NCBI GenBank assembly: GCA_043800255.1
Contig: JAZDNF010000001.1
Coordinates: 96,001 to 160,000 of the forward strand
Direction of reading: 5' to 3'
From: Candidatus Altiarchaeota archaeon
Lineage (GTDB): Archaea > Altiarchaeota > Altiarchaeia > IMC4 > SCGC-AAA252-I15
DNA length: 64,000 nt
Part shown: one piece after another, positions 6,161-55,988 of the stretch
Numbering within the stretch: the first letter of the stretch is position 1
Layout of the letters: each line of letters starts with the position of its first letter
Position numbers and translations under genes: made by a program
The notes under the pieces: model-generated
What the model saw: only the letters and a program-made list of their open reading frames with translations
What the model was told of the DNA's origin: nothing
The model's database searches: none

Positions 6161-7585
6161 ATGATAGACCGGCTCCCAGACATCCTGGAGGTTGACGCAT
6201 TCGACTTCGAGAAGCTGATAGAGAAATTCATCAACAAGATGGGCTTCAAGGTCGAGTCCAGCAAGAGGTCTCCTGACGGCGACATCCACCTTCTGGCGAA
6301 GACCACAAACCCCATGGGCGGCGAGGTGACCTCACTGATAAGGGCAGGAGCCTACGACAGGAAGGTCGACGTTGACACGATAAAGGACCTCTATGATGAC
6401 ATGATAAGCCACTCTGCCGTCAGGGCAGCGTATATAACGACGTCCGACTTCACACCAGAGGCTAAAGACTTCGCGCGGGGCAAGCCGATGAGCCTGATAA
6501 ACAAGTACGAATTCATAGAGGCACTTGACAGGGAGGGCATCAAGATAGACCCTGAGATGTTCAACCTTCTTGAGGCGCACGGGCTCACAGAGAAGAGGTT
6601 CAGGGAAGAGAAAGTTTTTTTCGAGTTTTCCAAAAGCACCCCGGAGGTTGCCGAATACTTCGCCAAGCGCAGGAAAAAGAAAAAATTGGGGCTTTTTGGA
6701 GTGGAGGATGATGTCAGCACCATAGTGAAACGCTACGCGCCAATCGGCATCTTCCGCGTCGCCTGGTCGAAGGAGGCTTCAGCGGAGGCAAGATCCATTG
6801 CCGAGACCCAGTCTGAGGATAATATTTTCGTGAACCTTCATAACGCAAAGTTATACTACATAACGAGGAGCAGGAGACTGTCCTCTGGGGAGGTATTTGA
6901 AAGGTCGAATGTTCTGGCAGAGATACTGGACCTTCCTGAGGAGGCGAGGGCGCATCTCCTTTACCTGATAAGGTATGGCGACCTGCCTCACAAGCAGCTT
7001 GAGGACAAGAACCTTTCAATCCTTGAGAAGAGGAAAATAATACGAATCTATGCGGCTGGGTCAAATGTTCAGGGCGTTGGGCCCTTAAGGAGCATGATAG
7101 ACGTTCTTGTTTACGTGATGCGCGAGCTATCGGACTTTCTAGTGCTCTTCATCCACGGCATTACCGGCAGTACGCCTTCAACCCCTGAGAGGGAGCTTGC
7201 GACGAGAGAGGGCGAAGAAGAGGAGAAGCTGGTTGGCGCGACTGTTGTGATGCCTCACACGTACGGCGGTCAGTATGACATCCTGAAATATCTTGCCACT
7301 GAGAATGGGCATGACACGAAATTCGAAGAAGACAATGTCGTCTACCCCTCAAAGTCTGTTGCAGACCTGCTTGCCGTGATACTTGACGCTGACGTCGAGC
7401 CCAAGGGTGTGGTCTTCATGCCCTACACTGTCGGGTCGTACAGGGACAAATCAACAGGCAAGATAACCCGGCGCGATATTCTCGTATCCCCTAAGTTCTT
7501 ATCGCACAAGAAGGCGGAGGGCAAGAAAGTCCAAATGCAGGCGGAGAGGAGGGAGTTTGGAATCCCCTACAAGATTATCAGATAA
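6161..7585 (+). CDS. Mrr-like restriction-endonuclease-fold protein (degenerate), paralog B
   Basis: FDFEKLIEKFINKMGFKV...DGDIHLLA...AAYITTSDFTPEAKDFA...LINKYEF follows the Mrr_cat pattern. Confidence 0.7.
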   Translation: MIDRLPDILEVDAFDFEKLIEKFINKMGFKVESSKRSPDGDIHLLAKTTNPMGGEVTSLIRAGAYDRKVDVDTIKDLYDDMISHSAVRAAYITTSDFTPEAKDFARGKPMSLINKYEFIEALDREGIKIDPEMFNLLEAHGLTEKRFREEKVFFEFSKSTPEVAEYFAKRRKKKKLGLFGVEDDVSTIVKRYAPIGIFRVAWSKEASAEARSIAETQSEDNIFVNLHNAKLYYITRSRRLSSGEVFERSNVLAEILDLPEEARAHLLYLIRYGDLPHKQLEDKNLSILEKRKIIRIYAAGSNVQGVGPLRSMIDVLVYVMRELSDFLVLFIHGITGSTPSTPERELATREGEEEEKLVGATVVMPHTYGGQYDILKYLATENGHDTKFEEDNVVYPSKSVADLLAVILDADVEPKGVVFMPYTVGSYRDKSTGKITRRDILVSPKFLSHKKAEGKKVQMQAERREFGIPYKIIR

Positions 7586-8101: not shown

Positions 8102-9712
8102 ATGAGTGCCAAAATGAGAGTCAGGAACTTAAACATTCTCCTTCTTTTGTCAATCCTAGCCTATCTTCTGTTCAGACTGCCTGATTTGGGAGTTATGCCC
8201 TACTGGGACTGGGATGAGGGCGTCAACATGAACATGGCCTACAATGTGGCATACGGCAGGCCCCTCTGGTTCACCCTCATATTTCCATTCGTGCCTCATC
8301 CTCCATTGTACCTGCTTTCTCTCGGCCTGATGCTCCGCCTTTTTGGGAATGAGCTCATAGTCTTGCGCATCTTCTCAGTCTTGCTCGGCCTTTTCACGCT
8401 TTCTTTTGTCTACCTCACAGGCAGGGAACTGAAGGGGCCGTCTTTTGGCGTTCTCGCATCAGCATTGTATGCCCTCTACCCTATGGCCATATACTGGGAT
8501 AGGATGGGATTCGCAAACAACATGTTCTCGCTCCTCATAGTAGCCTCCCTGTATTCCATCCTAAGGTACCTGCGCACAGGCCAGACCCGGTTCCTATATT
8601 GTTCTGCATTGCTTGCCGGCCTGAGCCCTGTAACGCAGTACATCGGGGCCTCAACCGTCTTATCTTTTGCAATTGCCCTCTACCTTGCGAAGAGAATAAG
8701 ACTTAAGCCTATCCTGTTCAGTCTGCTGCCATTTTTCGCGCTGGTGTCCGCAATGCTCATCCTCATGAGGGCTCCGTTCATCGAGGATGTCAGGTTTCAG
8801 ATTGACAGGTTCAACCTGGCAGGATTCCTGATGCTTGTGGCGGCAGTTCTGCTGGCATACGTCGGATTACATCTCCTGAAGCCGTTGAAACGGATTATCA
8901 GCGATGCTTTCTGGAATGCGTACGCCCGTCTAGGCCTCAGCAGGGAGTTTCTTGCCGAATACGATGTGCCTATCCTCCTGATATCGGTGAACTTCGTGAT
9001 GGCGTTGGACGCGTTCCATGTCCTATCGTACCAGTACCTCTTCACAGGGCTTGGATACTACTGGGTTGGCATAGTCGGGTTGTTCCTGTTCGAGAGGGGG
9101 ATTCCGAGAGCCGTTCTCCTGTCCTATTTTATCCCGCTTTTCCTGCTGATTTTCAAGATTGGCCGCACAGACCATATGACCATTCCCTTGAACCCTTTTT
9201 TTGCCATTGGCTTTGCAGCTCTTCTGATGCGGCTTACGAGCGTAATACGCCAGCTGACTTCCAACCGGAAGGTTATAGCAGGGTTTACGGTTCTCCTGGT
9301 TCTGCCATTCGCCTCAATCTTCCTACGGGACGTTCAGGCGTTTGTGCTTACCGGGCTGAAAACCGAAAGTCTGACCGAGCGGTTCGAATTAGCATCCTAC
9401 CTGGATAATAATACCGCTCCTGGGGAATATGTGCTGGTTGACAGTCACGAGGGCAGGTTCATAAAAGCCAACTACTCTATTGTGACGCAGTCTATTGCTG
9501 TTAACGGCAGGCAGATAGGCTATTACCGGGGTGACTATGAGCCTGGCAGGTTCGTAGTCAATTTCTCATACCAGGGGGCTAAATATATCGTCTTGGAGGA
9601 GGGTGGCATTGAGTGGCTGAGCGGGAACGTTTCTGACATAGCTTCTGAGATTTCCGAGTGGGGGGTTGAGGCTGAGTTCGGCAGGTTTCAGGTCTTAAGG
9701 AACCCAAAATAG
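8102..9712 (+). CDS. GT-C fold glycosyltransferase (GT39/PMT_2/ArnT-like)
   Basis: Multi-TM protein with WDWDEG and PHPPLY loop motifs, LRIFS, and a C-terminal soluble domain. Confidence 0.82.
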   Translation: MSAKMRVRNLNILLLLSILAYLLFRLPDLGVMPYWDWDEGVNMNMAYNVAYGRPLWFTLIFPFVPHPPLYLLSLGLMLRLFGNELIVLRIFSVLLGLFTLSFVYLTGRELKGPSFGVLASALYALYPMAIYWDRMGFANNMFSLLIVASLYSILRYLRTGQTRFLYCSALLAGLSPVTQYIGASTVLSFAIALYLAKRIRLKPILFSLLPFFALVSAMLILMRAPFIEDVRFQIDRFNLAGFLMLVAAVLLAYVGLHLLKPLKRIISDAFWNAYARLGLSREFLAEYDVPILLISVNFVMALDAFHVLSYQYLFTGLGYYWVGIVGLFLFERGIPRAVLLSYFIPLFLLIFKIGRTDHMTIPLNPFFAIGFAALLMRLTSVIRQLTSNRKVIAGFTVLLVLPFASIFLRDVQAFVLTGLKTESLTERFELASYLDNNTAPGEYVLVDSHEGRFIKANYSIVTQSIAVNGRQIGYYRGDYEPGRFVVNFSYQGAKYIVLEEGGIEWLSGNVSDIASEISEWGVEAEFGRFQVLRNPK

Positions 9713-9831
9713 GCTATTGTGAACATTAGACTGCATTTTTGCGAAAAATAATGAACATCTTTCATTTATATACCCTAGTTGTGCTATACTATACAGTATT
9801 TATTATTTTAAAAAAAATGGGAGGTGTCAAC

Positions 9832-10161
9832 GTGAACACAAAACATCTGGGTTTGGTTGCGGCGTTAGTCGTGCTAATGGCGAGTCTAGCCAGTGCACAG
9901 CTCGGATCTGCGCAGACAACTATCTGTAATATATTACAACAAGTATACACTTTACTGTTGTATATAGCGTCTGGTGTCGGTGCGGTGATGATAGTACTTA
10001 TGGGTGTGCTCTGGGTATCGTCCGCAGACAGCGCTAAGTCCAGAAATTCGGCAAAGAACGGTGTGGTCCATGCAATAATTGGATTAATCATCGTTTCACT
10101 GGCCATAGCACTTGTGACTATGGTTCTGCCAGAAGGTTCTGACTGCATTACCACATGGTAA
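9832..10161 (+). CDS. TrbC/VirB2-like pilin (solitary copy, candidate major pilin)
   Basis: GTG start 6 nt after a GGAGGTG Shine-Dalgarno; signal peptide ending ASA-Q; two hydrophobic helices around GVLWVSSADSAKSRNSAK..HAIIGLII. Confidence 0.8.
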   Translation: MNTKHLGLVAALVVLMASLASAQLGSAQTTICNILQQVYTLLLYIASGVGAVMIVLMGVLWVSSADSAKSRNSAKNGVVHAIIGLIIVSLAIALVTMVLPEGSDCITTW

Positions 10162-10217: not shown

Positions 10218-11270
10218 CTATCTTACCCCATAACTGGAGAAGGCCAGAATGCTGCGTATAACAGCCTCTACTATCATAAGAACGAGAAGCACCCTAAGCG
10301 CGGCCTTTACGACCTCTGACTTTTTTCCCAAATTCTCAAACGCATAGCTTATTGGAACACATAAGCTCCCAGCAGCAAACGCGAGGAGCCTGATGTTGTA
10401 ATCCTGGTTGGTGAAGAATGGTATGAACGTCAGGATATGGGGCAGAAAGACCCAGGACATGAGGAGCGCGGATTCGTTGTTATTCTTCAGGAAGGCTGGA
10501 ATGCCAGATGCTGCGAGTAGGACCGTTAACGGCCCGGCAATGACAAGATAATACAGGATACCTGGGACGTTTTTCGCATTTGCAGCTGACAATCCCGCCT
10601 GTAAGTCTATGCTATTTCCCCTCAAAGAATTTGTCACGTAGGGTGCGTATAGCATAAGTGATGCAAGCGTCACAATAGCAAAGGCAGATAAGGTGAATCT
10701 ATCTGCCCGTCTGCTTCTGACGATGGAATAGAGCAGTAGGGACAGCATAAAAAGGCTTATGTACATGCCGGAAGTCCTGTGTGCGATGACAACCGGAACC
10801 AGAATCAGCGGCGTGATAATGCTCCTCCTGGAAGTCTCAAGAGCAACAAACGTGTTAACCGTCAGTATGCCCAACAGGAGAGAGTATCCGCCCCATGTGA
10901 GAACCTCGGCAATGTCAAGGGGGCTGAAAACGTACAGCAGGGTTGTAATCATAGGATTGACTTTCAGCTTTTCTGAAATCACCCATAGCGGTATGACGTT
11001 CAAGGCCCCTATCAGGCAGCCTCCCACTATGGTCCCCGTCAGGTCATCCAGCCCGAGGAGCCTTCCCAACAGCATCACGGGCGCGAGTATGATGCTGACC
11101 AGGGCCTTGGGTTTGCCCTCCAGCAGGCTGTAGCTGTGCTGCAGGTAATTGCATTGGTCGCAGTTCCCGTCCGCACCACCAACTGGCGTGTACAATGTGG
11201 CGAGGAATACCCTGACCGCAAGGGCGAATAAGAACATCAGCGCAACCTGTTTTCTCCTTGAGAGTTTCAT
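10218..11270 (-). CDS. Multi-pass membrane protein, probable GT-C fold glycosyltransferase
   Basis: About 10 TM segments; acidic first loop GADGNCDQCNY; late R-LLAF motif; translationally coupled to the GT22 gene. Confidence 0.5.
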   Translation of the reverse strand: MKLSRRKQVALMFLFALAVRVFLATLYTPVGGADGNCDQCNYLQHSYSLLEGKPKALVSIILAPVMLLGRLLGLDDLTGTIVGGCLIGALNVIPLWVISEKLKVNPMITTLLYVFSPLDIAEVLTWGGYSLLLGILTVNTFVALETSRRSIITPLILVPVVIAHRTSGMYISLFMLSLLLYSIVRSRRADRFTLSAFAIVTLASLMLYAPYVTNSLRGNSIDLQAGLSAANAKNVPGILYYLVIAGPLTVLLAASGIPAFLKNNNESALLMSWVFLPHILTFIPFFTNQDYNIRLLAFAAGSLCVPISYAFENLGKKSEVVKAALRVLLVLMIVEAVIRSILAFSSYGVR

Positions 11271-12718
11271 CTTTTGTATACTGTCACATTCCCGCAGGAT
11301 TTCACGCTACGGTACCCTGCATCCTCCAGGAAATCATTCACTGATCCATTGGGGCTGGTTATTATGACATAGTTTATGTCATGGTCCGTGATTTCGTCCA
11401 AGCCTATCGTGTTAAAGCCGCTGTGAGGGATCACATACCTGTCGTTGAGCTGCGGGCTGGATACGAACTCCAAATCTACTATGTGATAGGATGGAATGTC
11501 TCTGTGAAAGTATGTGTACACTCCTGAAAGGTACCAGTGGATCGAGTATGCCAGCGCTTTTGCGTCATCCTGCTGTCCAACATACCTGACAGCCTGGAAA
11601 TTATCCTCAAAGGGTGTCCACCCCCCACCCCACTGTCCTGGGAGTTCAAAGAATATGAGCAGCTGCGCGCCAAGGACGATGAAGATGAACGAAAGGAACA
11701 TGTATTTTACGACAATATTCTGCTGGTAGCTTGGCCTGGACTGTTCTATCATCCTGTCCAAACCCCTGGCGGAGAGTATGAAAAAAAGCGGCAGCGCGGA
11801 GAACATGAACCGCATCTCCTTGTGGGGGATGAGCGAGAAGACGGTAAAATAAAGCAGGAAAGTCCCCCATAGCAGGCCTGCTGTCCTCTTCCTTTCAAAA
11901 GACCATGGCAGGAAGAACATGATGGGCACGTGCAGCAGGAGGGGCAGCAGGTAGTAGACTGGCGGCTCGGTACCGAATATGCTCGATTTTTTCTCAACCA
12001 GGTTTGCCATGAAAAAGGCGACAGGAGAGTGCAGGAACGAACCCCATGTTGCGAGGTCGATGAGGCCCTGGAATAGCAGAACGATCGCAAAGCCCGCGGA
12101 AAAATATCTCAGAATCTGGAATTTCCTGACAATCAGGAGATACGCTGCCAACGGCATGAGATACACCGCCGAGTTGAACTTGAGCATGAACGCAATCCCG
12201 AAGAGAATGCCGGAGAATATCGCATCATGTTTCCTGCCTTTCAGCGAGCCAAGCAGGAAGTACAATCCTCCAGTCACCGCTAATGCTGCTGGAACCTCCG
12301 GCATTATCCTGGCGCTCCAAAGGTAGAGCAATCCTGATGCTGCTGTGAAGAAGCCTGCAAGCAATCCAGTCCTCCTGTTATAGGCAGCGTCAGCCAGCCT
12401 GTAGACCGCGTATACCAGCAGGATGGATACTACCATCATAAGCGCCCGTACGGCGAAGACAAGCTTTAGGATGTCGCTGACTCCTGTCAGCAGGCCAGCC
12501 TTGAATATGGTGTAGATTATGCCTGGGAAGAACCATGACCTTATGCCGTCAACGTACTCCCACGGCATAAGTCCGTAGCCGAAAATCTTGATGTGGACCG
12601 GCTCAAGGTACTGGTAGATGCTGTCAGGGTGTATCATGCCGCCGGTCATGTTCAAGGCATACAACCTGGATATTACGGTGAAAGCCATCAGCAGCAGAAG
12701 CCAACTCCTGAAGGACAT
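11267..12718 (-). CDS. GT22 family (PIG-B/Alg9-like) mannosyltransferase-like protein
   Basis: HPDSIYQYLEPVH...PWEY..GIRSW and PHKEMRF motifs characteristic of GT22. Confidence 0.85.
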   Translation of the reverse strand: MSFRSWLLLLMAFTVISRLYALNMTGGMIHPDSIYQYLEPVHIKIFGYGLMPWEYVDGIRSWFFPGIIYTIFKAGLLTGVSDILKLVFAVRALMMVVSILLVYAVYRLADAAYNRRTGLLAGFFTAASGLLYLWSARIMPEVPAALAVTGGLYFLLGSLKGRKHDAIFSGILFGIAFMLKFNSAVYLMPLAAYLLIVRKFQILRYFSAGFAIVLLFQGLIDLATWGSFLHSPVAFFMANLVEKKSSIFGTEPPVYYLLPLLLHVPIMFFLPWSFERKRTAGLLWGTFLLYFTVFSLIPHKEMRFMFSALPLFFILSARGLDRMIEQSRPSYQQNIVVKYMFLSFIFIVLGAQLLIFFELPGQWGGGWTPFEDNFQAVRYVGQQDDAKALAYSIHWYLSGVYTYFHRDIPSYHIVDLEFVSSPQLNDRYVIPHSGFNTIGLDEITDHDINYVIITSPNGSVNDFLEDAGYRSVKSCGNVTVYKR

Positions 12719-46295: not shown

Positions 46296-47879
46296 ATGCG
46301 TAAGTTTTTAATCCTGATACTGGCGCTTTCAGTCTTTTTCAGGTTCTATGACCTACACTCTGTTCCATCATGGGACTGGGACGAGGGAGTGAACTTGAAC
46401 GTAATCCGCAATCTGTTGGACGGACGATTTCAGCTCTTCTCTGTAAAATACACTTTCTTCCCTCATCCTCCGCTTTTTTTCATTGTCGGGGGGATGATGA
46501 TTAAGCTCTTCGGCTATGAACTTTATTCTCTGCGGCTGATGACCGCATTTTATGGTGTGCTTACTGCGTTGTTGGTTTATGCGATCTCGACCAAGATGTT
46601 CGGCAGAAGAGTTGGCATAACGGCTGGTCTGCTCTACGCATTATACCCCTCCGCAATATATTTCAGCAGAATAGGTTTCGCTAACAATCAGGTCGTGCTG
46701 CTGTCGGCCTTCTCGGTCTATGCAATCTATTCCTATCTTAGAAATGAAGGCGAAAGATGGCTCTATGTCGCATCCATTGCGAACGGCACAGCTATTATAA
46801 CAGAATATACGGCTGTGGCCGGTCTTGTAGCGTCTTCATACCTGTTGCTGAAATACAAAAAGGAGACCCTACCTAAGTTTCTTTTGGTATCCCTACTACT
46901 GCCTCTAACGGTTTTGTCTGCGCTGTTCCTGATGTCATCAGATTCTCTGGTCTATGACATACTCGTGCAGGTCAGGAGGGTCTCCACACCATTCTTTTTC
47001 CTTGTCGCCTCCCTAACCGTGGTTGCCATGTTAACCATCTACAAGTTCGGAAATTTCATCAGGGAATTCTTCAGGGTTTTCACCTCAAATCTGAACGAGG
47101 TTACCGTGCCCGCATTCGTCATGATATCCATCTTCTCGCTGAAGCTGCATTCCGGGGGCCTGCAATTAAATGACGATATGTTCTACGGCGGGGTAACATA
47201 TCTGAATCTCATGGGACTTCTAAGCGTTTTCCTGATACTCCCCACCCTAAAAAAATCCATCGAACGGAGCGCACTCTCAGCTTACACTATAGGATACCTC
47301 CTTCTGCTCCTCGCATTGAACAGAGCTGACCACATGCTCATGTTCATCTATCCTTACACAATCATGCTCCTGGGGCTGCTGATTGAGAAAACCTACGTTG
47401 TTGTGAGGGAGTTCACAAAGGAAAACAACATCAACCCGGTGATACTGGTTATAATGGCCTACCATCCCCTCTTCTTCATATTCGTGCAGGATGTGCAGAC
47501 GTTTGTCATAGGAAATGCCATTGGTTCGACCCATGAGAGCGATTTCCTGGGACTTGTCGACTACCTAAACAATAGAACAGAGCCTAATGATGTCATCCTC
47601 ACTTACAGTTTTCTTGAGCCCTACCTCAAAGGAAAGACGTGTACGGTGATAGAATCCATTGCGTATGAGGGTCAGTCGATAAAATACTATCCGGGGGACA
47701 TCGACAGGGACCGGTTCGTATTCAATTGTTCCTACAAGTATGCGAGGTATATCACCATGACAAACGGCACGAGGGATAACATGTTGGATGGTAAGGAGTA
47801 CGAAAACCTGTCAGACTATCTGGAAACCCTCGAATACGATGTAGTGGGCAATTTTTTCGTATATAAAAGGGATATTTAA
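46296..47879 (+). CDS. GT-C fold glycosyltransferase (GT39/PMT_2-like), paralog of 8102
   Basis: WDWDEGVN, PHPPLF, YALYP.AIY..R.GFANN, R.DHM, DVQ.FV are shared with the 8102 protein. Confidence 0.82.
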   Translation: MRKFLILILALSVFFRFYDLHSVPSWDWDEGVNLNVIRNLLDGRFQLFSVKYTFFPHPPLFFIVGGMMIKLFGYELYSLRLMTAFYGVLTALLVYAISTKMFGRRVGITAGLLYALYPSAIYFSRIGFANNQVVLLSAFSVYAIYSYLRNEGERWLYVASIANGTAIITEYTAVAGLVASSYLLLKYKKETLPKFLLVSLLLPLTVLSALFLMSSDSLVYDILVQVRRVSTPFFFLVASLTVVAMLTIYKFGNFIREFFRVFTSNLNEVTVPAFVMISIFSLKLHSGGLQLNDDMFYGGVTYLNLMGLLSVFLILPTLKKSIERSALSAYTIGYLLLLLALNRADHMLMFIYPYTIMLLGLLIEKTYVVVREFTKENNINPVILVIMAYHPLFFIFVQDVQTFVIGNAIGSTHESDFLGLVDYLNNRTEPNDVILTYSFLEPYLKGKTCTVIESIAYEGQSIKYYPGDIDRDRFVFNCSYKYARYITMTNGTRDNMLDGKEYENLSDYLETLEYDVVGNFFVYKRDI

Positions 47880-47901
47880 ATGCGTGATTTCATATTCTAA
47901 C

Positions 47902-48240
47902 ATGTCCAAGGCGAATCCAAGCAAGGTTCAATTGGCGTTTACCTCCATACTCCTTCTCATAGCCTTATCCAGCATAGTATCCGCTCAATCATGGGTTACG
48001 GCTGTTTCGAGCATAGTCTGCGGGCTTCTGGTTGACGCCCTCAAGAACATCGTAGGAGCCTTGGCTGCCGTGGTCTTCGTATATTCCGGCGTAGAATACG
48101 TCATCTCCCAGGACGATCCAGGAAAGAGGAAGAATGCCAGGGACATGATGATATACGCATTGGTCGGTATCATCCTGGTTGGAATTGCTGCTACGATAAT
48201 CGGCGCTGTCCCGGGTTTCACAGGCTTGGGGTGCACATAA
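47902..48240 (+). CDS. TrbC/VirB2-like pilin 1
   Basis: Signal VSA-Q; IVC; GVEYVISQDDPGKRKNAR; C-terminal GCT. Confidence 0.82.
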   Translation: MSKANPSKVQLAFTSILLLIALSSIVSAQSWVTAVSSIVCGLLVDALKNIVGALAAVVFVYSGVEYVISQDDPGKRKNARDMMIYALVGIILVGIAATIIGAVPGFTGLGCT

Positions 48241-48242
48241 AA

Positions 48243-48644
48243 ATGAGAAGGGCAAAATTGATGTCAGATATTTTCGAGAACATGAGATTATTCGAGAACG
48301 TAAACAAGATACTTGTCGTGTTGTTTGTTTTATCAACTCTGACCCAGGGTCAGATGTCCTCCTCCAGCATATCCTCACCAGTCAATGAGATACTCTGCAT
48401 GATTTACAACGGCATATACCAGATTGCGGCTTCCCTTGCTGTGCTGGTTTTCGTGTTCGCTGGGGTCAAGTATGTTTCATCCATGGACGACCCTGGCAAG
48501 AGGAAATCAGCCAAGGATACCATGATAGCTGCCATAATCGGGTTAATAATCGTTTCAATCGGCAAGGCTCTCGTCAATCAGGTTCTCGAGAGCGTGTTGG
48601 GCTCAGGCTACAGCGTATCGTCTGCGTGTCTTGACTTCACTTAA
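48243..48644 (+). CDS. TrbC/VirB2-like pilin 2
   Basis: TQG-Q; ILC; GVKYVSSMDDPGKRKSAK; SACLDFT; start codon uncertain. Confidence 0.82.
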   Translation: MRRAKLMSDIFENMRLFENVNKILVVLFVLSTLTQGQMSSSSISSPVNEILCMIYNGIYQIAASLAVLVFVFAGVKYVSSMDDPGKRKSAKDTMIAAIIGLIIVSIGKALVNQVLESVLGSGYSVSSACLDFT

Positions 48645-48648
48645 GATT

Positions 48649-48990
48649 ATGAAGCCTTCAACTCAATTGAATAGAACTTGTGTTATATGCGCGCTTGCAT
48701 TTCTTGCGGTTCTAATATGCTCAGCAGACGCTCAGACCATAACGCCCCAATCCATATTCGTCCCAGTCTCGTCCATCGTATGCACCTTCAGGAGGGCGAT
48801 AGTTGAAATAGTGGGCGCCCTGGCATCGGTCATATTCGTGATATCCGGAATACGGTGGATATGGTCCCAGGACGACCCAGGCAAGAGGAAATCCGCAAAG
48901 GATGCGATGGTTCATGCCATAGTCGGCCTGATAATAATCGGGGTTGCGGATGAGATTGTTCAAAGCTTCAATTTCGTCGGGTGCACTTAA
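48649..48990 (+). CDS. TrbC/VirB2-like pilin 3
   Basis: ADA-Q; IVC; GIRWIWSQDDPGKRKSAK; GCT. Confidence 0.82.
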   Translation: MKPSTQLNRTCVICALAFLAVLICSADAQTITPQSIFVPVSSIVCTFRRAIVEIVGALASVIFVISGIRWIWSQDDPGKRKSAKDAMVHAIVGLIIIGVADEIVQSFNFVGCT

Positions 48991-48992
48991 AG

Positions 48993-49337
48993 ATGAAATC
49001 AACAACGTATCTGGTGCTGTTGGCGGTATTGGCGGCCGGCATTACGGTCGCGCAGACAATGTCGTCTGATGTCATCTCCGACCCGGTGCTTGCGATAGTG
49101 TGCGGCATATACAACGCATTCAGAACGATAGGCGTCACCATCGGAGGCCTCGTATTCTTATATGCTGGCGTAAAGTATGTAACTGAGAGCGACGATCCCG
49201 CGGCAAGGAAGCAGGCCAGGGACATCATGAAGATCATGGTAATCGGGATTGGCATAATCCTGCTCGCAGACGTGACAATATACACCGTAGGCGGCACTGC
49301 CCTCTCAAACTCGTGCGTACCCTACATTCCAACATAA
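48993..49337 (+). CDS. TrbC/VirB2-like pilin 4
   Basis: TVA-Q; IVC; GVKYVTESDDPAARKQAR; SCVPYIPT. Confidence 0.82.
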   Translation: MKSTTYLVLLAVLAAGITVAQTMSSDVISDPVLAIVCGIYNAFRTIGVTIGGLVFLYAGVKYVTESDDPAARKQARDIMKIMVIGIGIILLADVTIYTVGGTALSNSCVPYIPT

Positions 49338-49338
49338 A

Positions 49339-49689
49339 ATGAAAACTAAGGCCCTTATCCTGGCAGGCTTCATTTTGCTGGCTGCGCAAACAGTCTCATC
49401 TCAGACCGTCGGGACATCGCTCACGAATGAGATATGGAGCTATGTAAAACCGGTAGTATGCGGACTATTCGTCGGTTTCACCCTGATAGGAGGGTCTATT
49501 GCAAGCGTTATGATAATCTACGCCGGCATAAAATATCTGACATCAGCCGATGACCCAGCGGCTCGGAAGAATGCGAAGGATATGATAACCCATGCGATGA
49601 TAGGAATCGTAATCATCCTTATCGCCAATTTTATCGTGGCCACGGTAACCCAGGGCGAGTTTTTCGGGTGCCAGTACTGGACATTCTAA
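49339..49689 (+). CDS. TrbC/VirB2-like pilin 5
   Basis: VSS-Q; VVC; GIKYLTSADDPAARKNAK; GCQYWTF. Confidence 0.82.
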   Translation: MKTKALILAGFILLAAQTVSSQTVGTSLTNEIWSYVKPVVCGLFVGFTLIGGSIASVMIIYAGIKYLTSADDPAARKNAKDMITHAMIGIVIILIANFIVATVTQGEFFGCQYWTF

Positions 49690-49690
49690 A

Positions 49691-50035
49691 ATGAAAATTA
49701 AGGTAACTAAAGCCCTAGTGATGCTCGGATTAATGGCCCTAGTTGGTCAGGTTGCCGCTCAGTTTCCTGTTTACTCGCTTGACACGCTTATCTACACACT
49801 CACGGATCCTATACTCTGCTCGATTTACAACGGCTTTAAGATGATAGCAGGCGGGCTTGCTGTCGTTATGCTGGTTTTAGCTGGAGTTAAATGGATGTCT
49901 GCCGCAGACGATCCCCCAGCAAGAAAAGTCGCGAAGGACATGGTGATACACACTGTAATTGCCCTTATAATAATCGTGCTCGCGACTTTGATCGTTGATA
50001 TAGCGTCCGGCGGACAGCTGACGGCTTGTCCATAG
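49691..50035 (+). CDS. TrbC/VirB2-like pilin 6
   Basis: VAA-Q; ILC; GVKWMSAADDPPARKVAK; ACP. Confidence 0.82.
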   Translation: MKIKVTKALVMLGLMALVGQVAAQFPVYSLDTLIYTLTDPILCSIYNGFKMIAGGLAVVMLVLAGVKWMSAADDPPARKVAKDMVIHTVIALIIIVLATLIVDIASGGQLTACP

Positions 50036-50055
50036 CATCTAATAGCGGATGACCT

Positions 50056-50385
50056 ATGAAAAAGAACGCCCTAATCCTAATACTTTTTTGTTATATGACG
50101 TCCGGAATTTTCGAGTACGCCGGCGAGATTTCTTCACAAATATCGACGGTATTTGAGACTTCGTTCTGCACAGTATACACTGTGATATGGTACCTTGCAG
50201 GAGTCCTAGCATCCGCCATTATCGTGGTTCAGGGCCTGAAGTGGGTGGAGGCTGACGATGACCCCGGCCAGAGGCAGCGTGCTAAAGAGACGATCGTGAA
50301 TGTGATATACGCTCTGATCTTCATAATCATCGGGAAGATACTCGCAGAGCTGATTATCGGCGAAACTTTCAACTGTGCGCCCTAA
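50056..50385 (+). CDS. TrbC/VirB2-like pilin 7
   Basis: SFC; GLKWVEADDDPGQRQRAK; NCAP. Confidence 0.8.
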   Translation: MKKNALILILFCYMTSGIFEYAGEISSQISTVFETSFCTVYTVIWYLAGVLASAIIVVQGLKWVEADDDPGQRQRAKETIVNVIYALIFIIIGKILAELIIGETFNCAP

Positions 50386-50420
50386 TCCCTTTATTAATTT
50401 ACAATTAGAATCTGTATAAC

Positions 50421-50756
50421 ATGAGGCGGTTAGCTGTCCTTATCCTACTCCTTCTCATCGTTTCAACTGGCGGATGTGTAACAGACGATTTTGATACGTT
50501 CATAGCGGACCTCACAACGCTTCTGGAAGAGATGGCGCAGATGATATGCGACCTGAACGAGGCTGTTCAGCTGATCGTGGGCGTCGTAGGCTCTTTTGTA
50601 ATAGTCCTCGCAGGCCTTAAATGGGTTGGATCGCAGGACAACCCCCAGGAAAGGACTAAGGCTAAGCAGATGCTTCAGGCGGTAGTCGTTGGTTTCGCAA
50701 TAGTGGCGTCAGCGACTTTTATAGTCGAATTTGTACTGGGAAGCAGCTGCATCTGA
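50421..50756 (+). CDS. TrbC/VirB2-like pilin 8 (lipobox-like signal)
   Basis: MRRLAVLILLLLIVSTGG-C; MIC; GLKWVGSQDNPQERTKAK; SCI. Confidence 0.8.
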   Translation: MRRLAVLILLLLIVSTGGCVTDDFDTFIADLTTLLEEMAQMICDLNEAVQLIVGVVGSFVIVLAGLKWVGSQDNPQERTKAKQMLQAVVVGFAIVASATFIVEFVLGSSCI

Positions 50757-50792
50757 GCCGCTTTATATACGTTCAAAAGAAGTTATATAACA

Positions 50793-51116
50793 ATGTCCGC
50801 CAGTAGCAAGGCCATCCATCTGACTTTCCTCATATTGTCCGTATCAGGGAGCGTTTCAGCTCATCCTCTCACGGATTCGATAGCTGACAACCTGTGCATG
50901 ATATTCCAGGCCATAATCCTCATGACCGGCGTTATAGCCGTTCTCATGATCACGATAGCTGGCATGAGATGGATAGGTTCCGAGGACGATCCAGCTGCCA
51001 GGCAGAAATCAAAGGAGCAGGTTGAGAGCATAATAGTCGGGCTGATTATCGCGGCGGCCTCTATCGGCACTGCTGCTGTCGTGACCGGTCAGACTCCCTG
51101 CGTGTGGCCGATATAA
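50793..51116 (+). CDS. TrbC/VirB2-like pilin 9
   Basis: VSA-H; NLC; GMRWIGSEDDPAARQKSK; PCVWPI. Confidence 0.8.
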   Translation: MSASSKAIHLTFLILSVSGSVSAHPLTDSIADNLCMIFQAIILMTGVIAVLMITIAGMRWIGSEDDPAARQKSKEQVESIIVGLIIAAASIGTAAVVTGQTPCVWPI

Positions 51117-51117
51117 C

Positions 51118-51405
51118 ATGGTTAACGTAGATTTTACGCCGGCACTGAAGTACATATGCGTGATGTCATGTTTCATCAGGCTTGTTGTCGGCCCGATAGC
51201 GGTCCTGATATTGTCTCTTGCAGCGCTACACTGGCTTAAGTCCGAGGACAAGCCAGACGAGAGGAAGCAGTCCAAGCAGCAAATGAAGAACGTGCTGGCT
51301 GGTATCGTAATCATAACCATAGGTTACATTGTGGTTGAGGCAATCTTAGGCTCGGCTTCCATGGTAAACTGTGATGCGGTAACAGGTAACGCATGTCCAG
51401 TATGA
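51118..51405 (+). CDS. TrbC/VirB2-like pilin 10 (no signal peptide, 4 Cys)
   Basis: YICVMSC; ALHWLKSEDKPDERKQSK; NCDAVTGNACPV. Confidence 0.75.
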   Translation: MVNVDFTPALKYICVMSCFIRLVVGPIAVLILSLAALHWLKSEDKPDERKQSKQQMKNVLAGIVIITIGYIVVEAILGSASMVNCDAVTGNACPV

Positions 51406-51716
51406 AAAAGATCACAATTGTCATAGCAGGCGTGTTGTCAGCCGGCTCAGCGGCTGCGATAACCGGATTGCAACTTGTGCAACCCGTCTACGATGTTGTC
51501 TGCCTTTTTAAGGATGCTGTTGAGAATACCATAGGCGCGTTAGCCGCCATTCTTTTCGTATATGCTGGCATAAAATGGATAACCTCCGAGGAGGTGGAGG
51601 AGCAATTGCACGCGAGGGACATACTGGTGTACACTATAATCGGGCTGATACTGCTTGGGGTTATTGGAGGCATTACGCGCATACTCTTCCCAAATGTAAT
51701 CCTATCGTGCATTTAA
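51402..51716 (+). CDS. TrbC/VirB2-like pilin 11 (acidic loop)
   Basis: SAAA-I signal; VVC; GIKWITSEEVEEQLHAR; SCI. Confidence 0.78.
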   Translation: MKKITIVIAGVLSAGSAAAITGLQLVQPVYDVVCLFKDAVENTIGALAAILFVYAGIKWITSEEVEEQLHARDILVYTIIGLILLGVIGGITRILFPNVILSCI

Positions 51717-51722
51717 CAGAGA

Positions 51723-52508
51723 ATGAAAGTGTTGGACGTATTCAAGGAGAACGGGTGCGCTTTCATGCCGTACGTCTGCGCCGGAGACCCTGACCTAGTC
51801 ACAAGTAAGGAGATTGTGGGGGCTTTAGTCGGCAGCGGGGCTGACGTCATAGAGCTGGGTCTGCCCTTTTCTGACCCTATTGCGGACGGTCCCACAATCC
51901 AGGTTGCAGCCCAGAGGGCTTTGGATGCGGGAATGAACACGGATAAATACTTCAAACTATGCGGCCAGGTTTCGAGGGAATATGATGTCGCCCTTGTCTG
52001 CATGACCTATTATAACCTGATTTTCAATTACGGTTTGGACAGGTTCGCGAGGATGTGCGCTAAATCAGGCGTTTCAGGTTTAATCGTTCCGGATCTGCCT
52101 GTTGAGGAATCAGGCAGCTTGAAGAAAGCTTGCAGGAAGCGGGGTCTGGACCTGATACACCTTGTGGCTCCAACCACTATCGGGAAGAGGCGTGATCGAA
52201 TAGTCAAGGACAGCACAGGCTTCATCTACCTGGTGTCAGTGACCGGCGTAACTGGGGCTAGGAGGAACGTGGGGGTTGAAGTCGAAGGGCTGTTGAAGAA
52301 GATGAAGAGGAAAACCAAGCTTCCAGTCTGCATCGGTTTCGGGGTGTCGAAGCCTTCGCATGTTAAGGAGCTCAAGAGGATGGGCTTCGACGGCGTCATA
52401 GTGGGAAGCGCGATAGTGGATGTGATAGAAAAGAACCTCGGGAGCAAGCAGCGGATGCTCTCCCAGCTGAAGAAATTCGCGAAAAGCCTCAGCGATGCGA
52501 GGCTTTGA
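51723..52508 (+). CDS. trpA: Tryptophan synthase alpha chain
   Basis: IELGLPFSDPIADGPTIQ, MTYYN, PDLP, GVTG, GFGVS, DGVIVGSA. Confidence 0.97.
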   Translation: MKVLDVFKENGCAFMPYVCAGDPDLVTSKEIVGALVGSGADVIELGLPFSDPIADGPTIQVAAQRALDAGMNTDKYFKLCGQVSREYDVALVCMTYYNLIFNYGLDRFARMCAKSGVSGLIVPDLPVEESGSLKKACRKRGLDLIHLVAPTTIGKRRDRIVKDSTGFIYLVSVTGVTGARRNVGVEVEGLLKKMKRKTKLPVCIGFGVSKPSHVKELKRMGFDGVIVGSAIVDVIEKNLGSKQRMLSQLKKFAKSLSDARL

Positions 52509-52510
52509 CA

Positions 52511-55294
52511 TTAGTCGATTATCTCATAAGCTCTGACGTAGCCCCAGGAGCTGTAGTCCTGCTCGCCTGGGTAGTCCTCAAAGCCGTTGAATTCGTCCAA
52601 AAGCCTGAAGTGTTTCAAGGGGGTTATCTCCCTGTTGTACAGGCCGTACTGCTTGTACTCTTCGATGTAGTCTCCAAGATAGAGTTTTGTCATCATGAAG
52701 TCTGAGAACTCTCCCGGGACGTAGACTAGCGTGTTGTAGGGCGGGAACCTGCATATGTTGTTCTCAGGCAGTCTAGCCCACTGTGTGGTGCACGTCATTA
52801 TAGTGCTGAGAGGCTGCACTCCCAGTATGGAGGCGTCGTTGTCCTGTATCCAGTTGTCCCAGAGTATCCGCCTGCCGTACAGGTCCATGACCGATACTGT
52901 GAAAGAGTTCTCGCTCACGTCGAATATGACATAGGATATGTACGCTGGAACGCACCTGAAAACGATCCTTTGGGTGTAGGCTACGGTTCCATCCTCCTTC
53001 GTTGTGATCCTCGGCTTGAGGTCGCTCTCCTGCGGCGAGAAGCCGCAGTGGGCGTAGTTCCTGAACGAGCCTATGATTTCGTTGTCTATGTCGCCTGTTG
53101 CTATCTCATGGAGGGCGGATCCCTTCCCTATCATCGTCCAGTCTATCACCACGTACCTGAGGTCTACTCCCTCAGGGTATAAGTTCGTAATGTTCGAGTA
53201 CATGCTCGAGTAGTTTCTGACTATGTCGAAAGCCTCCTCCTCTGATGTCTTGTTCACGAAAAATCTTGCGACATCCTGTATCTGGAAGGCGTCAGCTTGC
53301 AGGTTGTCTATTAGGACAGACCTATACCCTGTTGATGTGATCCAGTGCCCATAGTCCCACCACGTTATTATTGCGGTATTGTTTGGGGTTTTCTCTCTCA
53401 TCCATGTGAGCGCCGGCTGCCAGTAGTATACGTCACCCAGCCCGGTATAGAGTGGGTGAACTCCGACGAACTTGTCATAGTTTGATGCGCCTGTGAACGG
53501 TATAAAGATTAATGGCGTAATCATAACGAATATCGCGCCTATGATCCTGATGCTCTCAAAGTCTTTCTTTTTGGCTATTGAGAACAGGCCGATGGTCGCT
53601 CCCAGCGCTGCTATGGGCACGCTTGCTGTGAACAGGTACTGTGACTTGTTGTACACGCCGTATATCATCGGCAGGCTCCATGTCAATATGAACAAGGCGC
53701 CGAAACTCCTCCTGGTCAGGCCGATATAAAGTAATACTGGGATCATCACCAGCCCGTAAAGGATTGCTATGCCGAATCTCATGGGAGTATACGCAAGGAA
53801 CTCTTTTATCGAATTTGAAGTTGGATTCTGCTCTGCTATTGTGACGGTTATCACATCATGGGCTCTGACGTCCTTTACGATTTCGAGCATCTGATTCTTA
53901 ATCAGGTCCCATCCTATATAATACGACCCTGCGATCACAGAGGCCACAATCAGCAGCGTTATCGGTGCCATGTTATCCCGTATTGTGTTCTCTATGCTGT
54001 CCATAAACACCTTCTTTTCCACCCTGTTTTTTCCATACCTGTGCTTTCTGATATTCTCCAGGATTATCGTCACCAGCAGCATGCCTGCGAGAGTTGCTGC
54101 GATGATGTTCCCCGGGTAGAAGCTGTTGATGTTCGGAAGCGTCTTCAGGGGATGTAAGAAGAATGGTGTAAGGAAGCTTGGAATTAGTGCAATCAGCACG
54201 TAGGGGATGTGTTCTAGGCAGTCTCGCCTGTGGATGAAATTCACCAGCGAATAGACTATGCTGAATATTGCGATTATTATGGCGGCGTATACGTATCCTC
54301 CCCAGGACATCCTAAGCAGCAGGAAACTGTAACCTGAAAGCAAGGCGAGTATGAGGCTTTTCCTCCTGAATGCCATGACAAAAAGATAAAAGCTTGCCAC
54401 GAACAGGAACATGCCCATGGCGTCATCCTCCGTGTTCGATGCGATTGCGCTGATCGCAAATGCGGGGCTTAACATGAGCATGAAAGCCGCGAGAATCGCC
54501 GCAATATTGTTGTACGGTGGCATGTCATGGAAAAGCTCCTTGACAAGGAGATAAAACAACAAAACCGTTAGCGCGCCCATTATCCCCCCGTATAACATCG
54601 CGACATCATACAATGATATCCCAATCAGCTTTGTCAGAGTTGCCATTGACGCTATGAACAGCGATGCGAAAAGCGGCACTACTGATATGTTCAGGCCGGG
54701 CGGTATGTTCGGGTTGTATTTCTGTATTCCCCCCCATATGGGGTATGTCATATAATCGTGGTCTGGGAGGAAGCCCGTAGTGTAGGTCAAATCTGCCCAC
54801 TTATAGTACCAGTAGGGGTCTATGTTTGAGATGAACGGCAGTTCGGCTGGCACGAGATGTATGATCAACGTCGAGAGAAATAGCGCGAGAACTGCTGCCA
54901 TCTGGGGTTTCATGAGCTTGTGCATTGATGCTGCATAGGCCAGCAGGAACACTCCGAATACGACCGAGAATATGGTGTAATCCCTGCCCATCCCTCCGGC
55001 GTATATTGTCGAATAGTAGAGGAAGAGGGTCACGACGAATATCAGCACCGGAACTCCGAAAAACCAGAAGTTTTTTGTGCCCCCCTTGAAGTACATCTTG
55101 ATGAAATACAGGCTCAGGCATCCGATGAAGAAGCTGCCGATGTACAGGACGCCTGCGACGCTTCCCATTCCGACAATAAGGCGGGCCGCGGCTATGAGGA
55201 AAGCTATTATGGAAAGCAGGAACAGCGGCTCCTGAATGTGTTCGGCGAAATCCGGAAGTTTCAGCTTTATCTCAAAACCTTCAGAGTCTCCCAT
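52511..55294 (-). CDS. aglB: Oligosaccharyltransferase AglB (STT3)
   Basis: IDPYWY, TIAEQ, WWDYG, many TM helices. Confidence 0.92.
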   Translation of the reverse strand: MGDSEGFEIKLKLPDFAEHIQEPLFLLSIIAFLIAAARLIVGMGSVAGVLYIGSFFIGCLSLYFIKMYFKGGTKNFWFFGVPVLIFVVTLFLYYSTIYAGGMGRDYTIFSVVFGVFLLAYAASMHKLMKPQMAAVLALFLSTLIIHLVPAELPFISNIDPYWYYKWADLTYTTGFLPDHDYMTYPIWGGIQKYNPNIPPGLNISVVPLFASLFIASMATLTKLIGISLYDVAMLYGGIMGALTVLLFYLLVKELFHDMPPYNNIAAILAAFMLMLSPAFAISAIASNTEDDAMGMFLFVASFYLFVMAFRRKSLILALLSGYSFLLLRMSWGGYVYAAIIIAIFSIVYSLVNFIHRRDCLEHIPYVLIALIPSFLTPFFLHPLKTLPNINSFYPGNIIAATLAGMLLVTIILENIRKHRYGKNRVEKKVFMDSIENTIRDNMAPITLLIVASVIAGSYYIGWDLIKNQMLEIVKDVRAHDVITVTIAEQNPTSNSIKEFLAYTPMRFGIAILYGLVMIPVLLYIGLTRRSFGALFILTWSLPMIYGVYNKSQYLFTASVPIAALGATIGLFSIAKKKDFESIRIIGAIFVMITPLIFIPFTGASNYDKFVGVHPLYTGLGDVYYWQPALTWMREKTPNNTAIITWWDYGHWITSTGYRSVLIDNLQADAFQIQDVARFFVNKTSEEEAFDIVRNYSSMYSNITNLYPEGVDLRYVVIDWTMIGKGSALHEIATGDIDNEIIGSFRNYAHCGFSPQESDLKPRITTKEDGTVAYTQRIVFRCVPAYISYVIFDVSENSFTVSVMDLYGRRILWDNWIQDNDASILGVQPLSTIMTCTTQWARLPENNICRFPPYNTLVYVPGEFSDFMMTKLYLGDYIEEYKQYGLYNREITPLKHFRLLDEFNGFEDYPGEQDYSSWGYVRAYEIID

Positions 55295-55295
55295 T

Positions 55296-55988
55296 TTATC
55301 TCCCGAATCTCCGCTCCCTGCTCTTGAAGTCGCTTATGATTTTCTCAAGGTCCTCTCGGGTGAACTCCTGCCAGAGCTTGTCAGAAAAGTATATCTCAGA
55401 GTAGGCCGACTGCCATGTGAGGAAGTTGCTGAGCCTGTCCTCCGATGTCCTTATTATGATGTCTGGGTTGTCCTTGACCCAAAGGTTGCTCTCAATGTTC
55501 TTATCGTTCAGTTCCAAGCCTTCCTCAACGACCTTCTTTGCGGCGTTGATAATCTCCTGCCGGCCCCCGTATCCCATCGCCAGATTTAACACCAGTTTGT
55601 CATGGTCTCTCGTCTTTTCCTCAAGCTTCTCGAGGTTGTCAATCAACTTGCCCCCGAGGCCAGGGTTTGTCGCCGTCGACCTTATAGTGTCCCTGTCGCC
55701 GCACACGTTGACTTTTACTCCCTCCTTCATTATCCTCTTGTCACCCATCGCCTTCTCGGCCTGCTCGTTGAATACCCTAAAAAGAGTCTCTATCTCGCTT
55801 TTGTCCCTGTTCCCGATGTTTTCAAGCGACAGGGCGTAGATTGTAACCTGGTTGACTCCGAGCTCCCTGCACCAGTTAACGAAATCGAAGAAATGGCTTA
55901 TCCCCTCCTGGTAAGAGTTCTTAAGATTAAGGGCCCCCTTCTTCCGCATGTACCTCCGGTTGCCGTCAGGTATCAAAGCGATGTGCAT
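55296..55988 (-). CDS. uppS: cis-Polyprenyl diphosphate synthase
   Basis: HIALIPDGNRR, YALSLEN, YGGRQEI, IRTS..RLSNFL.WQSAYSE, RRFGR. Confidence 0.95.
   Translation of the reverse strand: MHIALIPDGNRRYMRKKGALNLKNSYQEGISHFFDFVNWCRELGVNQVTIYALSLENIGNRDKSEIETLFRVFNEQAEKAMGDKRIMKEGVKVNVCGDRDTIRSTATNPGLGGKLIDNLEKLEEKTRDHDKLVLNLAMGYGGRQEIINAAKKVVEEGLELNDKNIESNLWVKDNPDIIIRTSEDRLSNFLTWQSAYSEIYFSDKLWQEFTREDLEKIISDFKSRERRFGR

Follow-up and report, generated by a model that had tools for sequence, protein, structure and literature searches.

In Patescibacteria (the candidate phyla radiation, CPR), 441 arrays of two to 11 VirB2 genes have been reported, with a mean identity of 25% and a maximum of 54% (PMC12102498). 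The chromosomal type IV secretion system (T4SS) described for these bacteria carries tandem PF18895/PF04956 pilins and a VirB4 related to the monoderm MPF-FATA class, mostly lacks a relaxase, and has apparently been co-opted to a non-conjugative role. In archaea, the Ced and Ted systems of Sulfolobales, Desulfurococcales, and Thermoproteales are chromosomal machineries "domesticated" from conjugation; they have no relaxase and combine a VirB2-like pilin, encoded by one gene beside the machinery, with a VirB4-like ATPase and a VirB6-like membrane protein (PMC9905601). Ced and Ted pili show weak peripheral density consistent with glycosylation, and both termini of VirB2-type pilins lie on the outer face (PMC9905601). 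In this study, we analyzed a 64,000-nt stretch of the genome of a Candidatus Altiarchaeota archaeon (contig JAZDNF010000001.1, positions 96,001 to 160,000; hereafter the window), in which an original prediction, made from the sequence letters alone, had noted a tandem array of 11 pilin-like genes. We propose with moderate confidence that the array consists of 11 old VirB2/TrbC-type paralogs, which stand operon-like behind a GT-C glycosyltransferase gene and feed a chromosomal T4SS-like pilus or tube, a mixed polymer of their products.

The array resembles those of Patescibacteria in its tandem PF18895/PF04956 pilins (PMC12102498), here 11 genes with an overall protein identity of 27.7% on average (range 11.9-44.8%, 55 pairs). 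Its host genome likewise yielded no relaxase match, and the best NCBIfam model for its VirB4 is the CD1110-type (monoderm) VirB4, at 307 bits against a cut-off of 325. Unlike the Patescibacterial systems, the host is an archaeon, and the array is detached from VirB4 and stands at a glycosylation locus behind a GT-C gene. A cysteine pair brackets the pilin hairpin, whereas four Saccharimonadia-like homologs lack the C-terminal cysteine. Altiarchaeota arrays also reach 14 genes, and multi-hairpin fusions occur. The accessible part of the text on the Patescibacterial systems makes no mention of pilin glycosylation or a disulfide (PMC12102498). The same source makes outdated the statement, in the original prediction, that such pilins usually occur in one or a few copies (PMC12102498).

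With Ced and Ted, the locus shares the domesticated chromosomal setting without relaxase, a VirB2-like pilin, and a VirB4-like ATPase, to which a putative VirB6-like protein may be added, and several array products have an A/S/G-Q junction resembling the site at which the TedC signal peptide is cut, between AVA and QA (PMC9905601). Unlike the array, Ced and Ted have a single pilin gene beside their machinery, and the accessible part of the report describes no array, GT-C gene, or cysteine pair for them (PMC9905601). The VirB4 of the host genome is not a CedB ortholog, scoring 51.8 bits with the CedB model (cut-off 700) and 60.7 bits with the CedD model (cut-off 600). In RP4 TrbC, T-pilin VirB2, and TrhA, the ends are joined head-to-tail by a peptide bond made by a peptidase. 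The ends of these cyclic two-helix pilins are covalently joined outside; a disulfide is predicted instead for the array pilins. The Mycoplasma integrative and conjugative element (ICE) proteins Mbov_0395 and Mbov_0397 (NF045849 and NF045975) provide the best or second-best NCBIfam models, with 34.7 bits for the array pilin W05 and 245 bits for VirB4. They belong to mobile elements of wall-less bacteria, unlike the array, and the scores lie under the cut-offs of 40 and 590.

Because similar arrays are known from ultra-small bacteria, we regard the locus as a new archaeal variant and not as a new kind of system. Three of its traits are apparently undescribed, namely the pairing with a GT-C gene, the two conserved cysteines, and, in relatives, the fusion of hairpins. 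In literature searches, which reached few subscription journals, no paper was found that combines VirB2, a glycosyltransferase, and pilin glycosylation, and no relevant paper on fused or tandem-domain pilins. No description of a T4SS-like system in Altiarchaeales was found; no paper paired them with VirB4, and the accessible texts that name both Altiarchaeales and type IV secretion leave the two unconnected.

All 11 array proteins passed the gathering cut-off of PF18895 (T4SS_pilin; 26.6 bits), with 27.1-49.2 bits and E values from 4.5e-6 to 5.5e-13. Two of them also exceeded the cut-off of PF04956 (TrbC/VirB2), five scored under it, and four had no match. In the Atlas, the clusters closest to them are annotated as T4SS_pilin and come from Altiarchaeota and Patescibacteria. 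By these profile matches, which lie far beyond chance, the array genes are homologs of VirB2/TrbC-type pilins, the identity that the original prediction had given them. The window holds 11 successive plus-strand open reading frames (ORFs) at 47884-51716, of 95-137 aa as raw ORFs. With the likely ATG starts, the span becomes 47902-51716, the coordinates first proposed, and the products have 95-133 aa. The alignment gave the loop consensus AGxKWVxSxDDPxxRKxAKD. Mean pairwise identity is highest in this loop (0.42), followed by helix 1 (0.33), the C-tail (0.26), helix 2 (0.25), the signal region (0.22), and the mature N-terminal segment (0.15). Hydropathy indicated three hydrophobic segments (signal peptide and two helices) in 10 of the 11 proteins and two in W10. 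An AlphaFold2 model of W05, made from an alignment of 62 family pilins, is a helical hairpin (helices 28-68 and 73-104) with a predicted local distance difference test (pLDDT) score of 79. The two helices, the G-h-K/R-Y/W...DDP loop, and the divergent ends were thus described correctly from the letters.

The spacing between the genes is 2, 4, 2, 1, 1, 20, 35, 36, 1, and -4 nt in order, so that 1-4 nt separate the genes at six of the 10 junctions and one junction is at -4 nt. The GC content of the array (0.486-0.494) lies inside the window range (0.453-0.538). DNA repeats within the array are confined to the 40 nt that encode the loop (60-78% identity), and the DNA repeat comparison gave no sign of recent duplication or conversion among the genes. 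W10 may be an unprocessed or decaying copy, since it lacks a leader and has the weakest family score.

The pilin family is widespread in the order. Of 41 relatives, 40 have PF18895 matches at E<=0.001, numbering 2-30 in each genome; the single genome without a match is 74% complete. Among 42 genomes of the phylum that are at least 80% complete, PF18895 occurs in all 33 other genomes of the order versus none of the eight in families f8 and f9. VirB4 occurs in 31 of these 33 versus none of the eight; the two genomes without it are 82% and 92% complete. VirB4 identity across the order is 56-76%. Judged by this co-occurrence, the array is part of an order-wide chromosomal T4SS-like system of Altiarchaeales.

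The position of the array is also conserved. In two genomes of another genus (G019 and G008), two PMT_2 genes are followed by 14 pilin genes and trpA, after which AglB stands on the other strand. In G005 and G001, arrays of four genes lie between AglB and the AAA_18 and PMT_2 genes. AglB adjoins the locus in all four genomes, with the prenyltransferase gene next in G019 and G001. The copy-number comparison suggested at the outset therefore gave 4-14 pilin genes at a conserved locus. The best matches of window array genes in the G019 array follow the same order, and a maximum-likelihood tree paired five window genes with their positional counterparts in G019 (Table 1). In the same tree, the window array is not monophyletic, and the single pilins beside the machinery form a separate "core/solo" clade (support 99/97). 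Because the sequences are short and several branches long, only the overall tree pattern is claimed. G019 and G008 are congeneric, and each of the 14 genes has a 1:1 ortholog in the other genome, with 69-100% identity. The dN/dS ratio (omega) is 0.00-0.89 in 13 of the 14 pairs; the remaining pair has 1.61 at a dS of 0.014, too few changes to interpret. Judged by these comparisons, the array is chromosomal and old, with a fixed locus in four genera.

The genome that contains the window (G000, with the window at C8:96001-160000; 1.75 Mb, 17 contigs, 93% complete) has 20 PF18895 matches, 18 of them above the cut-off. Searching it with our own pilin profile returned 15 small pilins (95-140 aa), an ORF of 178 aa, and a single pilin-like hairpin in each of five large proteins (739, 1423, 735, 708, and 1749 aa), the match in the 1749-aa protein having only E=0.08; a 596-aa VirB6-like protein was matched weakly. 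A T4SS cluster lies on contig C5. Its first part consists, in order, of a PMT_2 gene, a 91-aa ORF, a 108-aa pilin, the 1749-aa protein, a 179-aa ORF, the 596-aa VirB6-like protein, and a 354-aa ORF. After about 7 kb of unrelated genes follow a 303-aa PrgI/VirB3-like ORF (29.4 bits, over the cut-off), VirB4, the 739-aa pilin-domain protein, and a 131-aa pilin. VirB4 (C5:69321-71837) matched P-loop_TraG with 96.4 bits and AAA_10 with 57.7 bits. The search with VirB4 gave 24 related loci in species-representative genomes (62-76% identity), many on short contigs; a VirB3-like gene precedes VirB4 in 20, pilin-family ORFs follow it in 17, and 12 have a VirB6-like gene upstream in the same orientation. 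Six of 13 homologs of the VirB6-like protein matched TrbL at E<=0.01. In the 93%-complete genome, the best that the coupling-protein model PF02534 gave was a HerA-like gene with 19.1 bits, less than its cut-off, and the relaxase/coupling models PF12696 and PF03432 had no match. The description of the array as domesticated and chromosomal is fair in view of its conserved position across genera and the lack of relaxase and coupling-protein matches in this genome. That no VirB4, VirB6, relaxase, or integrase occurs in the window also agrees with our Pfam scan, which found none among the 59 window ORFs of at least 120 aa (E<=1e-4). T4SS partners are not missing from the genome, however: VirB3-like/VirB4 genes, a weak VirB6-like gene, and further pilins lie on contig C5.

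Some observations on this cluster may be added. The roughly 7 kb that split it (L002:102-6584, equal to G000:C5:62102-68584) contain a KaiC-like ATPase gene together with two genes each of the radical-SAM/SPASM and TPR kinds; in relatives, for example L038, L039, and L060, nothing separates the VirB6-like part from the VirB3/VirB4 part. The 303-aa VirB3-like ORF (L002:6644-7555) matches the N-terminal positions 21-277 of the Mycoplasma ICE VirB4 model with 58.8 bits, and VirB3 and VirB4 therefore look split from a fused form. The VirB4 ORF as called (L002:7321-9837, 838 aa) overlaps the VirB3-like ORF; its true start is probably later, giving a protein of about 760 aa as in relatives. The large hairpin proteins are encoded at L001:9507-14756 (1749 aa), L003:6584-10855 (1423 aa) and 4364-6571 (735 aa), L002:10025-12244 (739 aa), and G000:C8:166426-168552 (708 aa). 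The 1423-aa protein also has a Metallophos domain and the 739-aa protein a TSP_3 repeat. Such one-hairpin proteins may be pilus-borne or membrane-anchored surface proteins.

The gene directly upstream of the array encodes a PMT_2 protein. Its AlphaFold2 model (pLDDT 84.9, predicted template-modeling score 0.86) had 34 Foldseek matches in the PDB at E<=0.001, and those listed are all GT-C enzymes, among them AglB (7e9s, 4e-9), ArnT (5f15, 3e-8), STT3, PglB, Pmt4, and ALG9. In an alignment of 24 homologs, a WDEG-type motif near the N-terminus has an invariant D29 and nearly invariant W28, E30, and G31. By its model, the enzyme folds like a GT-C membrane protein and carries an acidic motif in the predicted first outer loop. 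A PMT_2 subfamily was defined as the proteins similar to this enzyme at E<=1e-20. The own genome has three such genes, each immediately upstream of a pilin gene. In 13 other genomes of the family, 14 of 20 PMT_2 loci have adjacent pilin genes, in eight further genera. A PMT_2 gene heads the T4SS core cluster itself in the own genome and in G008. Outside the family, PMT_2 adjoins a pilin gene in G023 and VirB4 in G028. The Ser/Thr fraction is 0.08-0.43 in the mature N-segment of the pilins versus 0.07-0.15 in the rest. We infer that the co-encoded GT-C enzyme may O-glycosylate this N-segment where it is exposed outside the membrane. N-glycosylation by the neighboring AglB is unlikely, as the 11 array proteins have a single N-x-S/T sequon, and it lies inside a signal peptide.

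Two cysteines were found in 60 of the 62 family pilins. One stands 22 or 26 residues before the conserved Gly that ends helix 1, and its partner lies near the C-terminus. The hairpin core contains only 11 Cys in 2914 residues. The two exceptions are one pilin without both cysteines and another with four C-terminal cysteines. In the Saccharimonadia-like homologs P0017, P0018, P0020, and P0021, cysteines occur in the N-terminal extension only. A disulfide between the two conserved cysteines probably ties the outer ends of the pilin. Since both pilin ends lie outside, such a bond would staple them together and would be functionally like head-to-tail cyclization.

Fused hairpins were met in relatives. 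When the pilin profile was searched against 1.84 billion representative sequences, 55,255 proteins matched at E<=0.001, of which 2,822 did so at E<=1e-10. At least two stretches are matched in 118 of the top 150, although a ranking based on the total score favors such multi-stretch proteins. Two metagenome proteins, P0054 (1775 aa) and P0057 (966 aa), have 17 and 10 units, respectively, each protein with one N-terminal signal peptide, no leaders between the units, and units that carry the cysteine pair. Single ORFs with 2-11 hairpin units, open in translation table 11, are also present in genomic DNA from two families of this order, f5 and f7: in G034 (822, 543, and 1057 aa; 7 + 4 + 7 units), G035 (1168 and 788 aa; 11 + 7), G037 (1047 and 620 aa; 10 + 5), G031 (1506 and 622 aa; 10 + 5), G024 (871 aa; 6), and G026 (363 aa; 2). 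Both cysteines are present in 52 of the 62 fused units that the motif could anchor. From the C-terminal Cys of one unit to the N-terminal Cys of the next, the median is 19 residues (range 14-33). In a quick tree, each G034 unit groups with the G035 unit at the corresponding position (support 98-99), and the fused units may form one clade (support 75). Collinearity between the units of fused proteins and the genes of the window array was not found: the best matches are scattered, with 30-47% identity, and the array and fusion expansions may therefore be independent. Hairpins within one polypeptide are necessarily expressed together, and the fusions argue for joint work of the hairpins in one assembly. 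The fused-hairpin loci are L061-L066 (G034:C13, G024:C26, G031:C16, G035:C11, G037:C8, and G026:C1), and the proteins are P0054-P0057.

We infer the following course for the array products. Each would be made as a precursor, in 10 of 11 cases with a signal peptide of the Sec type, cleaved in several at the A/S/G-Q junction. The pilin would insert as a two-helix hairpin, with the DDPxxRKxAKD loop toward the cytoplasm or lumen and the variable Ser/Thr-rich N-segment and C-tail on the outside. The outer ends would probably be O-glycosylated by the co-encoded GT-C enzyme and probably joined by the disulfide of the two conserved cysteines. Subunits would then be drawn from the membrane and co-assembled, probably into a mixed polymer, by the chromosomal VirB3-like/VirB4/VirB6-like apparatus. 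The predicted product is a T4SS-type pilus or tube for cell-cell contact or for the exchange of macromolecules, possibly DNA, and would not serve to move a mobile element.

The original prediction had regarded the array as a repertoire of variable subunits, and a strict form of this idea, in which one or a few alternative pilins are in use at once for partner recognition or for evasion of viruses or predators, has several observations in its favor. The exposed N-segment is the most variable region (0.15 identity versus 0.42 in the loop). Congeneric orthologs differ at 16.9% of N-segment sites versus 9.7% of core sites, as counted in 10 of the 14 pairs, four being lost to the motif filter. Divergence between G019 and G008 is greatest in the first three pairs, where identity is 69-84% and omega reaches 0.89. 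A repertoire has reportedly been proposed for the VirB2 arrays of Bartonella and Anaplasma. The published reading of CPR arrays is likewise of this kind (PMC12102498). However, the spacing in our array is tight and operon-like, without internal regulatory gaps at seven of 10 junctions, and the array showed no inverting or repeat DNA that could serve for switching. Gene order and 1:1 orthologs are kept across genera, omega is below 1 in 13 of 14 pairs, and the fused hairpins of relatives force joint expression. Because of this spacing, the positional orthologs, the dN/dS values, and the fusions, co-assembly fits better than the alternatives, and we consider a strict repertoire unlikely. The hairpins could also form no filament at all and act as a membrane-resident oligomer (ring, pore, or scaffold), or as an anchor or export tag for the VirB4/VirB6-like machine. 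Proteins that fuse as many as 17 hairpins, with 34 predicted membrane helices, behind a single signal peptide would suit this, as would the five large one-hairpin proteins of the own genome and the Patescibacterial clusters in which the pilin domain is fused to SLT or Big_5 domains. That no filament has been observed also agrees with such a role. On the other hand, both ends of a unit lie outside, so that linked units could still pack in a tube, and a VirB4 kept at 56-76% identity across the order fits an extraction or assembly motor. To our knowledge, all characterized members of the VirB2/TrbC superfamily build pili. A purely membrane-resident role therefore seems to us quite improbable. That an integrated conjugative element or a plasmid brought the array in as cargo, or left it behind as a remnant, would agree with the conjugative ancestry of the pilin family and VirB4 and with the conjugal-transfer models among the best NCBIfam matches. 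Such an origin was rejected as very hard to believe: no integrase, relaxase, or coupling protein was found in window or genome, the GC content of the array is that of its surroundings, the locus lies between the same housekeeping genes in four genera, and PF18895 occurs in all 33 other genomes of the order. The possibility of an ordinary conjugative element, raised in the original prediction as what would overturn it, is contradicted by the same facts.

Several observations weigh against the proposed mixed T4SS-like polymer. A Foldseek search with the W05 model found no match in the PDB at E<=0.001. A wide VIA-align search gave a best Z of 8.5 with unrelated helical hairpins (Mical, Snf7, and Mediator) and listed no solved pilin, and the pilin profile reached TrwL among PDB sequences only at E=0.23. 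Because a two-helix hairpin resembles unrelated folds, these searches say little about likeness to solved pilins. The VirB6-like protein scores 20.7 bits with TrbL, under the cut-off of 25.9, and its profile matched only Gly-rich linkers of antibodies in the PDB. The array does not share a contig with VirB4, and contig coordinates put a distance of at least about 183 kb between them, so that their link rests on co-occurrence among relatives. Because the genomes are kin, the co-occurrence of PF18895 and VirB4 may in turn reflect one gain or loss. Six of the 20 PMT_2 loci in relatives are without an adjacent pilin gene, three of them at contig ends, and the subfamily was not found in G024, G026, and G029, three of the five genomes of the order examined outside the family; the GT-C pairing is therefore frequent but neither universal nor obligatory. 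Fusions with up to 34 membrane helices are hard to square with the extraction of single pilins. No filament, transcript, or protein of the array has been seen. A look-up of sequencing runs for 46296-52508 gave no RNA run and, as DNA, three runs from one study with small word shares (0.15, 0.05, and 0.00).

More tentatively, and with clearly less confidence than the mixed polymer as such, the array may be the parts list of a hard-wired, glycosylated, and disulfide-stapled heteropolymer tube or ring, whose fixed subunit order would be kept as gene order or by fusion and which would be served by a minimal VirB3/4/6 machine and a dedicated GT-C enzyme. If so, this would be an undescribed T4SS-derived surface or membrane structure of archaea, maybe for partner contact or DNA exchange in biofilms. 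Altiarchaeales are abundant, uncultivated archaea that can reach high abundance in natural biofilms, and cryo-electron microscopy of native filaments may therefore be realistic, as for Ced and Ted. If the mixed T4SS-like polymer is confirmed, Altiarchaeales would be a third lineage, beside the Ced/Ted archaea and Patescibacteria, that has made conjugation machinery a chromosomal organelle, with the pilin expanded to 11-14 genes. A GT-C enzyme paired with pilin genes, a cysteine pair that may replace pilin cyclization, and natural fusions of up to 17 hairpins could change the understanding of VirB2-type pili; the fusions pose the question of whether covalently linked pilins can polymerize.

Table 1. 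Pilin genes of the window and genes beside them (positions of the window), with counterparts of array genes in the maximum-likelihood tree.
Feature	Coordinates	Strand	Product and matches	Counterpart in G019 (support)
Second PMT_2 gene	8102..9712	+	PMT_2 55.4 bits	
Twelfth window pilin gene	9739..10161	+	"core/solo" clade; PF18895 39.3 bits; directly behind second PMT_2 gene	
GT-C glycosyltransferase (PMT_2)	46296..47879	+	527 aa; PMT_2 56.1 bits; ends 22 nt before first pilin ATG	
Pilin W01	47884..48240	+	likely ATG 47902, 112 aa; PF18895 49.2 bits	
Pilin W02	48231..48644	+	likely ATG 48243; PF18895 46.0 bits, TrbC 34.4 bits (over its cut-off)	
Pilin W03	48631..48990	+	likely ATG 48649; PF18895 47.2 bits, TrbC 39.6 bits	L020:8462 (98/84)
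Pilin W04	48981..49337	+	likely ATG 48993; PF18895 36.4 bits	L020:8787 (89/82)
Pilin W05	49339..49689	+	116 aa; PF18895 48.3 bits	
Pilin W06	49691..50035	+	PF18895 49.2 bits	
Pilin W07	50056..50385	+	PF18895 39.5 bits	L020:10012 (91/88)
Pilin W08	50421..50756	+	PF18895 43.4 bits; leader end lipobox-like STGGC	L020:10328, with one other row (92/88)
Pilin W09	50793..51116	+	PF18895 31.4 bits	
Pilin W10	51118..51405	+	95 aa; PF18895 27.1 bits, weakest of array; without signal-like N-terminal segment	
Pilin W11	51393..51716	+	likely ATG 51402; PF18895 30.9 bits	L020:11400 (92/86)
trpA	51723..52508	+	Trp_syntA 303 bits; 6 nt after last pilin gene; conserved downstream boundary, not claimed as functional part	
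AglB (STT3 oligosaccharyltransferase)	52511..55294	-	927 aa; Pfam; conserved neighbor of array	
cis-Prenyltransferase	55296..55988	-	Pfam; conserved neighbor of array	

The flanks of the array had been described as housekeeping or glycosylation genes, with which the Pfam annotation agrees; housekeeping genes in the window include TFE, RadA, LonB, Kae1, tRNA-intron endonuclease, aIF2-alpha, and primase. The count of 11 pilin genes stands for the array, and the twelfth pilin gene of the window (Table 1) had been overlooked. Beside it, on the minus strand (10218-12718), lie a 350-aa ORF without a Pfam match and a Glyco_transf_22 gene. A scan for bacterial-type promoters and terminators, a model unsuited to archaea, gave hits at chance level (10 versus 9.9 expected and 6 versus 5.7, respectively). 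The sequence TTTAAAT about 25 nt before the start of the GT-C gene is a possible TATA box.

In eight loci, the GT-C gene and the core pilin are separated by a conserved ORF, about 91 aa long and with the motif TQRVD...SKPWFPYGN (L001:8718-8993, and matching gaps in L022-L025, L028, L035, and L036). It had no Pfam match at E<=0.01, and its Atlas leads, RHH_6 and MetJ at 0.87-0.88, are sub-threshold only. From these ribbon-helix-helix leads, the product may be a regulator. Elsewhere in the window, two adjoining Mrr_cat restriction-endonuclease genes, one with a NACHT-associated inactive restriction-endonuclease domain, occupy 4896-7585 and may form a defense locus.

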